The position numbers and the translations under genes are program-made. DNA of 64,000 bases, taken from a phage. The stretch lies in the NCBI GenBank assembly GCA_024672315.1, contig GCA_024672315.1_4714.1. One strand, written 5' to 3'. Within the stretch, counting starts at the first letter, position 1; each line of letters opens with the position of its first letter. Shown piece by piece: positions 55,637 through 58,374 of the stretch. The notes beneath the pieces are model-generated. The model saw nothing but the letters and a program-made list of their open reading frames with translations. It was not told where the DNA came from and did not search any database.

Positions 55637-56143
55637 TCATGCTAAAATTCCCTCATTACCTAACAGTCGATTACGATGACGTCGGTACATTTGACAAAGT
55701 GTTGTGATTTGATAATGTTTGTTGTAGCGTACCTCGATACGTTTTTGCACCTCTTTCCATGGAAGTTTATCGTATTGTCGATAACGATGGATTTCATTTA
55801 ACATACGAAGACGAGTAGGATCGGTGTTCTTTATCGTCGTGAGCTTCACGCGTTGATATCCACGCTGTAGTCCCGATTCGGAATACGTGACATCAAACTC
55901 ATCCTGAATGATGGTGATGATCTCCCGCCACCGACGGTTCTCGCCATCACGTAAATGGACAACCCGCGATAAGATATCGTTCCGATTACGATGACTCAGT
56001 TTGATGTTAAGCATTGAAGCAATCGCGCTAATTGCTCTCTGACTCCGTCCTAACGCTTCACCGATTTCTTTCGATGTCATGACGCCCGCGTTTCGGCGTA
56101 TGAATGCGATTTCGGTTGTTGTGTATTCTTTACCTACTGCCAT
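55637..56143 (-). CDS. Myb/SANT-like HTH-repeat protein, paralog 1 of 6
   Basis: 168 aa; HTH-like repeats (TEIAFIRRNAGVMTSKEIGEALGRSQRAISAIASMLNI) shared with the five upstream genes. Confidence 0.7.
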   Translation of the reverse strand: MAVGKEYTTTEIAFIRRNAGVMTSKEIGEALGRSQRAISAIASMLNIKLSHRNRNDILSRVVHLRDGENRRWREIITIIQDEFDVTYSESGLQRGYQRVKLTTIKNTDPTRLRMLNEIHRYRQYDKLPWKEVQKRIEVRYNKHYQITTLCQMYRRHRNRLLGNEGILA

Positions 56144-56607
56144 TTCTTACCACGTGTGTTATAATAGTAACGCTGACAAAGATGTGTGTGACGATACTCC
56201 CGTTTGAACTCGACGCTGATAATGCGAGCAACTTCTCTCCAGTTAACCCCTTCACGTCGAAGTGCTGTAATACGGTCTGAAATTCTGCACCATTCATCCG
56301 GGTCGTATCGTCGTAGCTTGAGTCGTCGTATTACGGAGGCGACGCTCGCTCTCGATCGGCCAAGATGATTTGACAGCTGTTTGACCGAGTATCTGTGGAT
56401 ATTGTCGCGAATATAGGAAATCTCGTTGTCCGTATATGCCTCATTGGTTCTCGACGAAGGGAACAGCATATACAGCTTATTCTTAATCGCGCTTTCTGTG
56501 CGTTGAAATACAGCAGCCAGCTCACTAACCGGTGGTCTGGGTATCCGGTCCGCGTAATCCTCGAGGCGTGAGAGTTCCTCATCTGTCCAGCGATGGTACT
56601 TGCGCAT
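56134..56607 (-). CDS. Myb/SANT-like HTH-repeat protein, paralog 2 of 6
   Basis: ORF track starts at 56709; ATG at residue 35 (MRKYHRWTDEELSRL...) has AAGGAG RBS; contains ..IRDNIHRYSVKQLSNHLGRSRASVASVIRRL.. Confidence 0.7.
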   Translation of the reverse strand: MRKYHRWTDEELSRLEDYADRIPRPPVSELAAVFQRTESAIKNKLYMLFPSSRTNEAYTDNEISYIRDNIHRYSVKQLSNHLGRSRASVASVIRRLKLRRYDPDEWCRISDRITALRREGVNWREVARIISVEFKREYRHTHLCQRYYYNTRGKKWQ

Positions 56608-57082
56608 GGGCAACTCCTTTGTTTTTCGTGTAGTAACACCAACGTTGATACAACGCATGTTTATTCGTTGTAATCCCAAATTTAACAACAACGTCGTAGG
56701 TAATAACATCCCAATTTTGGGTGACGTTAAGTCGTTCCGCGATAAACGCGATAATCGCTTCCCGTTCTTGCTTGGTTAGCGCACGACGAATTCCATTAAG
56801 CCGTATAAACTGACGAACCGAGTCATACGAACGGTTTAAATCGTACGCAATCTCCCGCAGCGATTTTTGTCTGATTACCGACTTGATGTACGCACGTTCT
56901 TCTTCCGTATACGGCCGATGCTTTTGACGTTGACGTATTCCTAAGCGTCCCAGACGCGCGTCGACGCTGGCGCGTGTTCGTCCTGTCCGTTGCGCGATTT
57001 CATCAATCGTCATCGACGTGTTCAAATACAGATGCGTAACATCTTTCAGCTCGTCGTCACGCCACGGTTGAGATCGTCCCAT
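56579..57082 (-). CDS. Myb/SANT-like HTH-repeat protein, paralog 3 of 6
   Basis: 167 aa; W-x2-(D/E)EL ... IDEIAQRTGRTRASVDARLGRL, then ..SLREIAYDLNRSYDSVRQ..; GAGGGA RBS; start overlaps upstream stop by ~26 nt. Confidence 0.7.
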   Translation of the reverse strand: MGRSQPWRDDELKDVTHLYLNTSMTIDEIAQRTGRTRASVDARLGRLGIRQRQKHRPYTEEERAYIKSVIRQKSLREIAYDLNRSYDSVRQFIRLNGIRRALTKQEREAIIAFIAERLNVTQNWDVITYDVVVKFGITTNKHALYQRWCYYTKNKGVAHAQVPSLDR

Positions 57083-57560
57083 CTTGTATCCCTCTTTTCT
57101 TTCTATGATGCCACCAACGCTGATAGACAGCCTGCTTCGTACGTGTTATACCGAAATGCGCATTAACCCGTTCAGCAATGTGGTGCCAATCCTGCGTTTC
57201 TTCCAACAATGTATCAACGAAGGCTATGAAGATCTTAGTATCAGCCTCGCTTAACCGCTTGAAACCATGACGATGTGCTATCGTTCTGATACTGTTTGGA
57301 TCCCTGTTTAAATCGCGCGCGAGCTGTTTATAACTTTTGTGTTTGCAGTGCACTCTGATGTATTCCAACTCATCGACACTGAAACGTTTATGCGGTTTAC
57401 GACGTTCAACATTTAAGTATATCAACCTCGATTTAATTGCACCGTACGTTGTTTCCATGATTTCTGCGATTTCACGGATTTTTAATTTCGGGTGACGATA
57501 GTACAATTCCAGCAACTGTTCATCATCCTTACGATTCCATCGTCGTACTGGAGGTTTCAC
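57057..57560 (-). CDS. Myb/SANT-like HTH-repeat protein, paralog 4 of 6
   Basis: 167 aa, GTG start with AGGAG RBS; three repeats (W..KDDEQLLELYYR..IREIAEIMETTYGAIKSRL; ..SYKQLARDLNRDPNSIRT..; ..WHHIAERVNAHFGITRTKQAVYQRW). Confidence 0.7.
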   Translation of the reverse strand: MKPPVRRWNRKDDEQLLELYYRHPKLKIREIAEIMETTYGAIKSRLIYLNVERRKPHKRFSVDELEYIRVHCKHKSYKQLARDLNRDPNSIRTIAHRHGFKRLSEADTKIFIAFVDTLLEETQDWHHIAERVNAHFGITRTKQAVYQRWWHHRKKRGIQDGTISTVA

Positions 57561-57573
57561 AACGAGATTTCTC

Positions 57574-58041
57574 CTATTCTACGCGTTTTAATGCTTGAGT
57601 GTAGTAGAGGCTATGAACACCGCTTAACGTGTAATGGGTGTTAAATTCGTTATTGATGATATTCCGTATTCTCTCCCAGGTGTTATTCTCTTTTCTAAGC
57701 GTATGTATTCGATAATAAATCATCTCTCGACGTTGCGCTTTGCATGCAACAATACCGTAACGGTAGCAGAGTTTAGCGATTGCGTCCACGCTACGGTTGA
57801 ACATCGCTGCAGCTTCTTTTACGCTATGCGTCTTAAGATAATCGGCTAACATCACGCGTTCTTCGAAACAGCAATAGCGGTGACGCGACATGAGTTTCCA
57901 GCGCTTGCGATTACGGTTAATTCGACCTTGAACAGAGCCTTCTGTTCGGTCAAGCCGTGCCGCAATCTCTTGCATCGGGATACCGTTTCGGTACAGGGTA
58001 ATCAATATCGCGTCTTCTTCGGGTGTCCAGTCCTTGACCAT
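57574..58041 (-). CDS. Myb/SANT-like HTH-repeat protein, paralog 5 of 6
   Basis: 155 aa; WTPEEDAILITLYRNGIPMQEIAARLDRTEGSVQGRINRNRKRW is a near-canonical Myb-type repeat. Confidence 0.7.
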   Translation of the reverse strand: MVKDWTPEEDAILITLYRNGIPMQEIAARLDRTEGSVQGRINRNRKRWKLMSRHRYCCFEERVMLADYLKTHSVKEAAAMFNRSVDAIAKLCYRYGIVACKAQRREMIYYRIHTLRKENNTWERIRNIINNEFNTHYTLSGVHSLYYTQALKRVE

Positions 58042-58053
58042 AGTGCCACCCCA

Positions 58054-58374
58054 TCAACGTCTTACTTTAAGCGATATCTTGTTTCGAAAACAATAACACC
58101 GGATGGCGTGTACGCTACGATTCATTATTTCAGCAATTTCATTTAGGGTATGCTTCTTCGCAAGCATCGCAACCCGGGTTCTTTCTTCTGGTGTGTAAAC
58201 TCCCCCACGAGGAGGTAGGTCACCTCGTCGTTTCCTCAACTTGAGGTAACGTGCGCGAATAGAACACGGTGTCCGATCCATGCAACGCGCTATTTCTTTA
58301 TAGCTCGCTTTTGGTGATGTGCTAAGAATAAGTAGCAGTGCTTCATCTTCTTTATCCGTCCAACGTTTACCCAT
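58054..58374 (-). CDS. Myb/SANT-like HTH-repeat protein, paralog 6 of 6
   Basis: ORF track starts at TTG 58401; ATG at residue 10 ([39 protein letters not shown]) has AAGGAG RBS and overlaps the ligase stop by ~8 nt. Confidence 0.65.

Follow-up and report, generated by a model that had tools for sequence, protein, structure and literature searches.

Six consecutive minus-strand open reading frames (ORFs) occupy positions 55637–58374 of a 64,000-nucleotide stretch of phage DNA (GenBank assembly GCA_024672315.1, contig GCA_024672315.1_4714.1), the whole of which we refer to as the window. We named these genes p1 to p6 in the order of transcription; they encode proteins of 106, 155, 167, 167, 157, and 168 amino acids (aa), and they lie next to a gene for an NAD-dependent DNA ligase. 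Bases 55000–61000 of the window are 94.1% identical to Escherichia phage vB_EcoM_Goslar (237-kb genome), a nucleus-forming phage of the Chimalliviridae that infects E. coli, and p1–p6 are, in this order, orthologs of Goslar gp119 to gp114. The genes themselves have GenBank entries, one of them with a Myb/SANT label: RefSeq calls gp114–gp118 "hypothetical protein" and gp119 "SANT/Myb domain-containing protein". What appears to be new, for a known kind of protein, is the arrangement of six paralogs in one array, a module (C) restricted to this lineage, a link to the T5 protein D5 and to the ligase, and the replacement of p1–p5 as a block.

The genes follow closely upon one another. The ligase and p1 overlap by 8 nt, gaps of 12 and 13 nt separate p1 from p2 and p2 from p3, and p3/p4, p4/p5, and p5/p6 overlap by 26, 29, and 10 nt, with a GGAG-type ribosome-binding site at every p1–p6 start. 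Starts were picked by ribosome-binding sites and homologs, that of p5 from the homologs P0005, P0008, and P0012. The p5 stop codon (TAG at 56134–56136, minus strand) reads CAG in Goslar and in two relatives, L007 and L015, where p5 is 19 codons longer (176 aa) and shares 67 nt with p6; through this single base difference, residue 3 of p6 is also Val in the window in place of Ala. No further family member was found among all ORFs of the window with a hidden Markov model (HMM) of the family.

Are the six genes copies of one another, as a preliminary description of this locus had proposed? All-vs-all BLASTP connected all six, with p3–p4 as the top pair (31% identity, 87 bits, E 4e-26) and p6 as the weakest-linked paralog, connected by its matches to p5 (E 1.5e-8) and p2 (E 3e-7). 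All E-values of this comparison are small in part because the database consisted of the six sequences only. An independent profile, PHROG 323 ("transcriptional regulator, D5-like"), was likewise matched by p1 (E 1.2e-18), p2 (6.2e-18), p3 (1.4e-14), p4 (4.1e-18), p5 (3.8e-19), and p6 (7.6e-10). Judged by these comparisons, p1–p6 are true paralogs, diverged from one another, with tandem helix-turn-helix (HTH) modules of a Myb/homeodomain-like type, and the proposed paralogy is borne out.

AlphaFold2 models, HMMs, and alignments together gave 17 three-helix HTH bundles, arranged as A-B in p1, A-B-C in p2–p5, and B-C-C in p6. The AlphaFold2 model of p4 (predicted local distance difference test score, pLDDT, 81) contains nine helices in three bundles, and that of p6 (pLDDT 78) three 3-helix bundles; the domain HMMs found two bundles in p1 and three in each of p2–p6, a count that is partly circular because the domain HMMs were built from p1–p6 themselves. 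In both models, the three-helix bundles have, as in Myb/SANT domains, an HTH formed by helices 2 and 3, and the low predicted template modeling scores (0.52 and 0.44) suggest that the modeled bundles do not pack on one another. In the multiple and domain alignments, the A and B modules have an aromatic residue followed, after two or three positions, by E-E, then (E/Q)(I/L)A, and then R-(T/S)-x2-(S/A)-(I/V). The C module is longer: six residues are inserted between helices 2 and 3, helix 2 contains a Trp, and helix 3 is of the (Y/W)-Q-R-(W/Y) type. The shifted B-C-C layout of p6 is seen as a register shift in BLASTP against p5 and p2. The preliminary description had assigned each protein two or three copies of a W-x2-EE...EIA...R(T/S) repeat; the number of modules holds, but module C is a distinct, longer type and not that repeat.

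Furthermore, all six proteins are strongly basic, with isoelectric points of 9.7–10.4 and net charges of +11 to +15. Helix 3 is only 23–31% identical between paralogs, and the binding specificities of the paralogs therefore probably differ. Between the two allele types of the p1–p5 cassette described below, helix 3 is 48–56% identical, like the remaining protein and with no extra conservation, and specificity may differ among cassette types as well. We regard DNA binding by the tandem HTH modules as highly probable.

The assignment to named HTH classes was mixed. The Pfam families Myb_DNA-binding, HTH_23, and Sigma70_r4_2 passed in some of p1–p4, as the preliminary description had expected, but p5 and p6 gave only sub-threshold hits. 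All of the leading matches of p1 were above threshold (Myb_DNA-bind_6, 33.8 bits; Myb_DNA-binding, 33.2; HTH_23, 24.7). The best match of p2 was Sigma70_r4_2 (PF08281; 34.3 bits against a Pfam threshold of 25.7), with HTH_28 and HTH_23 also above threshold; p3 matched Sigma70_r4_2 (27.3 bits) and, on residues 104–151 of its domain C, Myb_DNA-bind_6 (27.3 bits); and p4 matched Sigma70_r4_2 (26.7 bits). Only p1 and domain C of p3 thus exceeded the thresholds of the Myb models (PF00249 and PF13921); p2 (14.0 and 16.7 bits), p5 (17.1 and 18.8 bits), p4, and p6 fell below. A "near-canonical Myb" repeat, previously ascribed to "paralog 5" (our p2), was consequently an overstatement. As for the Myb tryptophan triad, the A and B modules retain the first W/Y/F alone, with I/L/A-type residues at positions 2 and 3, and the C modules have a W in helix 2 and a Y/W in helix 3 and lack the first W. 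GcrA (PF07750, threshold 26.9 bits) stayed below threshold in p2 (14.0 bits) and p4 (14.1 bits), no Pfam nuclease family matched p1–p6 or the adjacent ORFs tested, and PADLOC and NCBIfam scans of the array returned nothing at threshold.

Among solved structures, the best relative of the family profile was 2LVS (E 4.6e-9 over modules A and B), and c-Myb followed with a weak E of 0.018. A Foldseek search of the PDB with the p4 model gave nothing but tandem-HTH DNA binders, with 2LVS at the top and, besides it, the bipartite domain of Tc3 transposase, c-Myb R1R2R3 on DNA, Reb1-Ter, and Pax6. Like p1–p6, the archaeal CRISPR repeat-binding proteins Cbp1 and Cbp2, to which 2LVS belongs, are small and basic and consist of two or three HTH modules with nothing but basic linkers; unlike them, p3 and p4 score only 20.0 and 17.4 bits with NCBIfam HTH_Cbp1 (cut-off 140), the hosts belong to another domain of life, there is no CRISPR context, and the C module is not shared. 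The Myb/SANT proteins (c-Myb R1R2R3, PDB 1H88) have tandem three-helix bundles in common with p1–p6, and helix 3 of domain C is of the W...(Y/W)QRW type. On the other hand, the A and B modules are without the second and third aromatic residues of the triad, and p2, p4, p5, and p6 are sub-threshold. Neighbors among the predicted viral structures of BFVD were Goslar paralogs, small uncharacterized phage proteins, and HTH-endonuclease fusions.

How widespread are these modules? An exhaustive profile search of 1.84 billion representative proteins returned 10,557 clusters at E ≤ 1e-3. Of the best 150 matches listed, nearly all were proteins of 200–900 aa in which the A-B part alone matched, 2–10 times over, and full-length A-B-C matches were found in Goslar-like sequences only. 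A tblastn search with p4 against 50,697 phage records found Goslar alone, and therefore no wider phage distribution at that sensitivity. On this sequence evidence, the A-B-C layout is confined to Goslar-like phages, the A-B repeat is very widespread, and the family is not a general feature of jumbo phages. The long poly-HTH proteins of bacteria, phages, and plasmids (for example, P0051–P0196, P0027, and P0030) share the A-B di-module, in 4–10 matched stretches, but carry their repeats in one polypeptide of 300–900 aa, whereas the array spreads them over six short genes; eight long examples matched only HTH-type Pfam families (HTH, Myb, GcrA, or Sigma70_r4). The nearest relatives outside the Goslar group (P0029–P0033, 268 aa) occur as single copies (L005 8001–8807) on a 193-kb contig that looks like a conjugative plasmid or large mobile element and not like a phage, with ArdA, LPD29/LPD11, and YafQ-like genes as neighbors. 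We also considered gp094 of the phage RAY and rejected it as an unrelated XRE protein.

The ligase beside the array is full-length and NAD-dependent, its orthologs carrying the Pfam domains DNA_ligase_aden, OB, ZBD, HHH, and BRCT, and the array indeed lies directly downstream of it, as had been described. The overlaps of starts and stops and the lack of an internal boundary motif also support the earlier suggestion of co-transcription, and array and ligase would then belong to one transcription unit. The candidate boundary is a hairpin of the CCCTCCC...GGGAGGG type with TATG 1–10 nt further on (mostly TTATGC), which a looser, family-specific pattern found at no fewer than 11 distinct intergenic sites of the window (15 strand-specific reads) against 0.46 expected from shuffles; a strict scan for hairpin plus TATG gave 3 hits, not above shuffles. 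Besides the two sites in Table 1, they are at 367–411, 8644–8686, 11256–11283, 19914–19955, 21030–21066, 25531–25575, 26032–26076, 32234–32276, and 48651–48681, and several are readable on both strands. The two minus-strand copies in Table 1 bracket the gp122-like ORF, the ligase, p1–p6, and an acetyltransferase relic, and none lies inside. Because some copies are located between convergent genes, the hairpin would be at least a terminator, and the element probably marks the boundaries of transcription units. Scans of the window for sigma-70 promoters and intrinsic terminators showed nothing above shuffles, and the word TATATTAC, which we take to be the phiKZ-type early promoter consensus, occurred at 2 sites against 2.4 expected. 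TATG is the late-promoter consensus of the phiKZ non-virion RNA polymerase (PMC7618050). A preprint on a Goslar RNA sequencing (RNA-seq) time course (5, 15, 20, 30, and 60 min; bioRxiv 10.1101/2023.09.20.558163) gives 175 of 249 genes as on at 5 min, and its text does not name gp114–gp119.

Table 1. Genes and other features of the array locus (window coordinates).
Feature	Coordinates	Strand	Description
Small ORF, 94 aa	60433..60717	-	First gene of the unit; 100% identity to Goslar gp122; stop overlaps ligase start by 4 nt
NAD-dependent DNA ligase, 689 aa	58367..60436	-	Full-length; 93.5% identity to Goslar ligase
p1, 106 aa	58054..58374	-	Modules A-B; Goslar gp119; ATG overlaps ligase stop (ATGGGTAA)
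p2, 155 aa	57574..58041	-	Modules A-B-C; Goslar gp118; "paralog 5" of the preliminary description
p3, 167 aa	57057..57560	-	GTG start; modules A-B-C; Goslar gp117
p4, 167 aa	56579..57082	-	Modules A-B-C; Goslar gp116
p5, 157 aa	56134..56607	-	Modules A-B-C; Goslar gp115; raw ORF extends to 56709
p6, 168 aa	55637..56143	-	Modules B-C-C; Goslar gp114; best-conserved member
Cassette, p1 (codon 18 on) through p5	56128..58322		No nucleotide similarity to L002/L003/L004; flanks ~85–92% identical
Hairpin CCCTCCC...GGGCGGG, then TTATG	60768..60799	-	Candidate upstream unit boundary (putative terminator and/or restart)
Perfect hairpin CCCTCCC-GGCAT-GGGAGGG, then CTTATG	55514..55538	-	Candidate downstream unit boundary
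Relic, 30 aa	55548..55640	-	First 30 codons of a GNAT acetyltransferase; identical to the N-terminus of Goslar gp113
Downstream gene, 216 aa	54844..55494	-	Weak similarity to class I S-adenosylmethionine (SAM) methyltransferases; belongs to the next unit

The closest named relative of p1–p6 is D5 of phage T5 (T5.118), which gave PHROG 323 its name, matches that profile at E 1.2e-71, and was the sole match of the A/B-module HMM in 35 kb of T5 (E 5.8e-9). Besides the common profile, D5 has tandem HTH repeats of the form W/F-T-P-E-E...IA...GR...V...L. It differs from the array in being a single gene of 255 aa with about four repeats, alanine-rich, much less basic, and without a C module, whereas the array consists of six genes of 106–168 aa with two or three modules each. 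T5 relies on the host polymerase, whereas the window phage, a nucleus-forming chimallivirus, has RNA polymerases of its own. D5 directly follows the split NAD ligase ligA/ligB, with an 8-nt overlap with ligB (ATGTCTAA, L009 12311–12318), a geometry matched by the 8-nt ligase/p1 overlap of the window (ATGGGTAA, 58367–58374) in a different phage family. A D5-like gene also follows the ligase in the demerecvirus Aeromonas phage Akh-2. According to the RefSeq record of T5 and to McCorquodale 1979, as cited in PMC12630848, D5 binds double-stranded DNA and is needed for DNA replication, for late transcription, and for early shut-off. The D5 resemblance fits the idea of a DNA-metabolism operon better than that of a decoy, both of which the preliminary description had raised.

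Is the pairing of ligase and D5 inherited from a common source? The window ligase is closest to chimallivirus ligases (38–44% identity versus ~31% to T5-like LigA), and therefore, in the Goslar lineage, the array was inserted beside a ligase of vertical descent. The synteny between T5 and the window is thus due to convergence, which would be a hint of a functional link, or else to chance. As a general rule, the pairing is rejected, since of the other phages examined only the Demerecviridae (T5 and Akh-2) have it.

The array is found in the same position in seven of the seven Goslar-like relatives examined. Against Goslar and L007, the ratio of nonsynonymous to synonymous substitution rates (dN/dS) of p1–p6 was 0.03–0.21, with p6 at 0.03–0.10, and that of the ligase was 0.08–0.10. 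Such low values, similar to those of the ligase, indicate that p1–p6 are maintained, functional genes.

Comparison with a sister clade (L002–L004, contigs of ~248 kb) revealed a feature that the preliminary description had missed. In blastn, similarity to the window ends at 58323, 17 codons into p1, and resumes at 56127, at the start of p6. The proteins on either side are well conserved (ligase, 92–95% aa identity; p6, 88–90%; the downstream methyltransferase-like protein, 84–85%), whereas the positional counterparts of p1, p3, p4, and p5 are only 39–56% identical, and the best match of p2 is q1, the counterpart of p1, at 36%, the sister clade being without its own p2. Synonymous divergence is saturated within the cassette versus ~0.3 in the ligase, which, together with the sharp breakpoints, argues for replacement by an anciently diverged set of alleles and not for local acceleration. 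These comparisons show a swap of p1–p5 as a block between otherwise near-identical phages, with p6 as the constant member. The relative L013 is a mosaic, in which a long A-B-C version of P1 (152 aa, 56% identity to p1) is followed by window-type p2–p6 at 70–89% identity. In the metagenomic contig L002, the third array gene (8500–9008) is split into ORFs of 98 and 85 aa, through either a frameshift or an assembly error.

What, then, might the six proteins do? We propose that they are multi-HTH binders of double-stranded DNA (dsDNA) that act on phage DNA in the phage nucleus, with a D5-like role in replication, nick handling, or expression, a proposal that we hold to be evenly balanced between right and wrong. 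Each protein would dock its HTH modules, two or three in number and connected through short basic linkers, in consecutive major grooves of dsDNA, in the mode of the Cbp-type CRISPR-repeat binders, the bipartite domains of Tc3 and Pax, and Myb R2R3. As the recognition helices (helix 3) vary by paralog, the six proteins probably would read different sites. The substrate is most likely the phage's own DNA within the nucleus, and the array would, like D5 in T5, modulate replication, the processing of nicks, or the expression of genes, with p1–p5 as an exchangeable cassette and p6 as a conserved constant member. We regard the paralogy, the fold, the match to the family, the basic charge, the purifying selection, the operon-like packing, and the replacement of the cassette as demonstrated, whereas DNA binding itself, the phage-DNA target, the nuclear localization, and the D5-like role are what we infer. 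Action on phage DNA is favored because of the resemblance to T5 D5, the coupling to the ligase, and the destruction of the host chromosome by Goslar, after which the DNA present is mainly that of the phage (PMC13282480).

A number of observations weigh against this proposal. The PHROG 323 matches of p1–p6 span only positions 92–270 of the 319-position profile, and PHROGs are clusters of remote homologs. Direct hhalign of the family with the single T5 D5 sequence was weak (probability 55%, E 1.2e-4), and all Foldseek matches in the PDB had E > 0.05, a level to be expected when bundles are small and flexible. Membership in the family says little about function because the A/B repeat is very common and occurs also in homing endonucleases. 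In ten other large phages with a ligase gene (the chimalliviruses 2050HW, RSF1, FLC6, and PhiPA3, together with sm033, Phabio, KPN8, D9, PBS1, and RHph_TM40), no D5-like ORF was present within 3.5–4 kb of that gene, and, given its absence there, the adjacency to the ligase could be a coincidence. Hypervariability such as that of the cassette is commoner in conflict genes than in housekeeping replication factors. Finally, our literature search found no experimental work on p1–p6, no paper pairing Goslar with gp114–gp118, and none with both "Goslar" and "Myb" in a phage context.

The genes around the array vary as well. A gene for gp120 (235 aa) is present between the ligase and p1 in Goslar (L001 8246–8953) and in L015 (3997–4704) and absent from the window, L007, L013, and L002–L004, an indel located exactly at the ligase/array junction. 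We considered gp120 as a nuclease or HTH relative and dropped it, having found no Pfam or PHROG match. A Dam-like MethyltransfD12 gene is present at the point corresponding to window positions ~61701–61735 in L004 (3384–4211), L013 (904–1728), and L015 (1–662, as two ORFs); it is absent from the window and, according to the annotation, from Goslar. Downstream of p6, ~860 bp comprising the rest of gp113 and gp112 are deleted in the window and present in Goslar, L007, L015, L013, and L002–L004. The methyltransferase that the preliminary description had placed downstream is there as a gene, and RefSeq calls its Goslar ortholog a class I SAM-dependent methyltransferase, but all of its Pfam methyltransferase matches are sub-threshold and its PHROG (19090) is of unknown function. 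The gp122-like ORF of 94 aa has no Pfam or PHROG family.

Could the array be directed at the host? In this alternative, which we consider unlikely, the proteins would work in the cytoplasm in takeover or counter-defense, binding host DNA or host DNA-binding proteins, for example so as to silence loci of the host or of its defenses or to act as decoys. Arms-race pressure would explain why p1–p5 are swapped between close phages, with a cassette of 36–56% aa identity and sharp breakpoints between flanks more than 90% identical, and accessory neighbors (the GNAT acetyltransferase, the Dam-like methyltransferase, and gp120) that come and go. The closest solved relative, 2LVS, binds CRISPR repeat DNA, and in RAY, another chimallivirus, host DNA is coated by a regulator that the phage expresses, though that protein is the unrelated XRE-type one. 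However, Goslar degrades the host chromosome, no significant PADLOC match was obtained, a role in phage DNA metabolism is indicated by the presumed co-expression with the ligase and by the resemblance to T5 D5, and selection within a cassette type is plainly purifying.

It is rather improbable that p1–p6 are specificity factors of the phage RNA polymerases, with sigma region 4-like modules recruiting polymerase to sets of genes, in line with the gene-specific transcription factors, possibly for different promoter classes, that the preliminary description had suggested. This would be consistent with the Sigma70_r4_2 scores above threshold in p2, p3, and p4, with weak NCBIfam matches to ECF sigma factors on the same segments, and with the requirement of D5 for late transcription in T5; in addition, the phiKZ non-virion RNA polymerase has a promoter consensus of just TATG, and further factors are postulated in the paper on its structure (PMC7618050). 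On the other hand, no Pfam match to Sigma70_r2 or Sigma70_r3 was found in p1–p6, whose NCBIfam sigma scores (16–22 bits) lie far below the cut-offs (43–323), and the similarity is of a generic HTH kind, as the same segments match HTH_23, HTH_38, and Myb models. In phiKZ, moreover, a sigma-like role is already held by gp68. The family is also absent from the other Chimalliviridae of the phage collection and from their ligase neighborhoods, and therefore the array is not part of the conserved transcription machinery.

Very unlikely is an origin of p1–p6 as orphan DNA-recognition modules of homing endonucleases or selfish elements, a graveyard or depot without a phage role, for although phage HNH/homing endonucleases have homologous tandem HTH modules (secondary matches to PHROGs 1891, 8446, and 7545, E down to 4e-9), endonuclease fusions occur among the BFVD neighbors, and gene-by-gene mosaicism with sharp breakpoints (the P1 swap in L013) and one split copy (L002) are seen, p1–p6, unlike those endonucleases, and the adjacent ORFs lack a nuclease domain, dN/dS is 0.03–0.21, gene order and number are conserved in all relatives, and translational coupling to the ligase is tight.

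Binders of phage DNA would matter in particular in nucleus-forming phages, whose transcription and replication take place behind a protein shell and with machinery of their own. The promoter of the non-virion RNA polymerase is too short to account for gene-specific control, and no accessory DNA-binding regulators of nucleus-forming phages are described in the reviews that we searched. The array supplies six candidates, conserved and under selection, in a phage of E. coli that is amenable to experiments, and for Goslar both knock-down by CRISPRi-ART and an RNA-seq time course are already available. If p1–p6 are ordinary, non-specific DNA-coating proteins, the finding is modest. As a long shot, they might be swappable, sequence-specific nuclear factors that lend gene or site specificity to a transcription and replication system with no more than TATG as its known promoter consensus, and the p1–p5 types might then be regulatory "mating types" that limit productive recombination or cross-activation between co-infecting Goslar-like phages, in which case the cassette and its target sites would co-evolve. 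The link to T5 D5 ties the array to a classical, structurally uncharacterized factor of replication and late transcription and suggests a recurrent pairing of ligase and D5. The replacement of the cassette means that part of the DNA-binding repertoire of a jumbo phage is exchanged in blocks between near-identical genomes, which bears on the diversification or competition of such phages.

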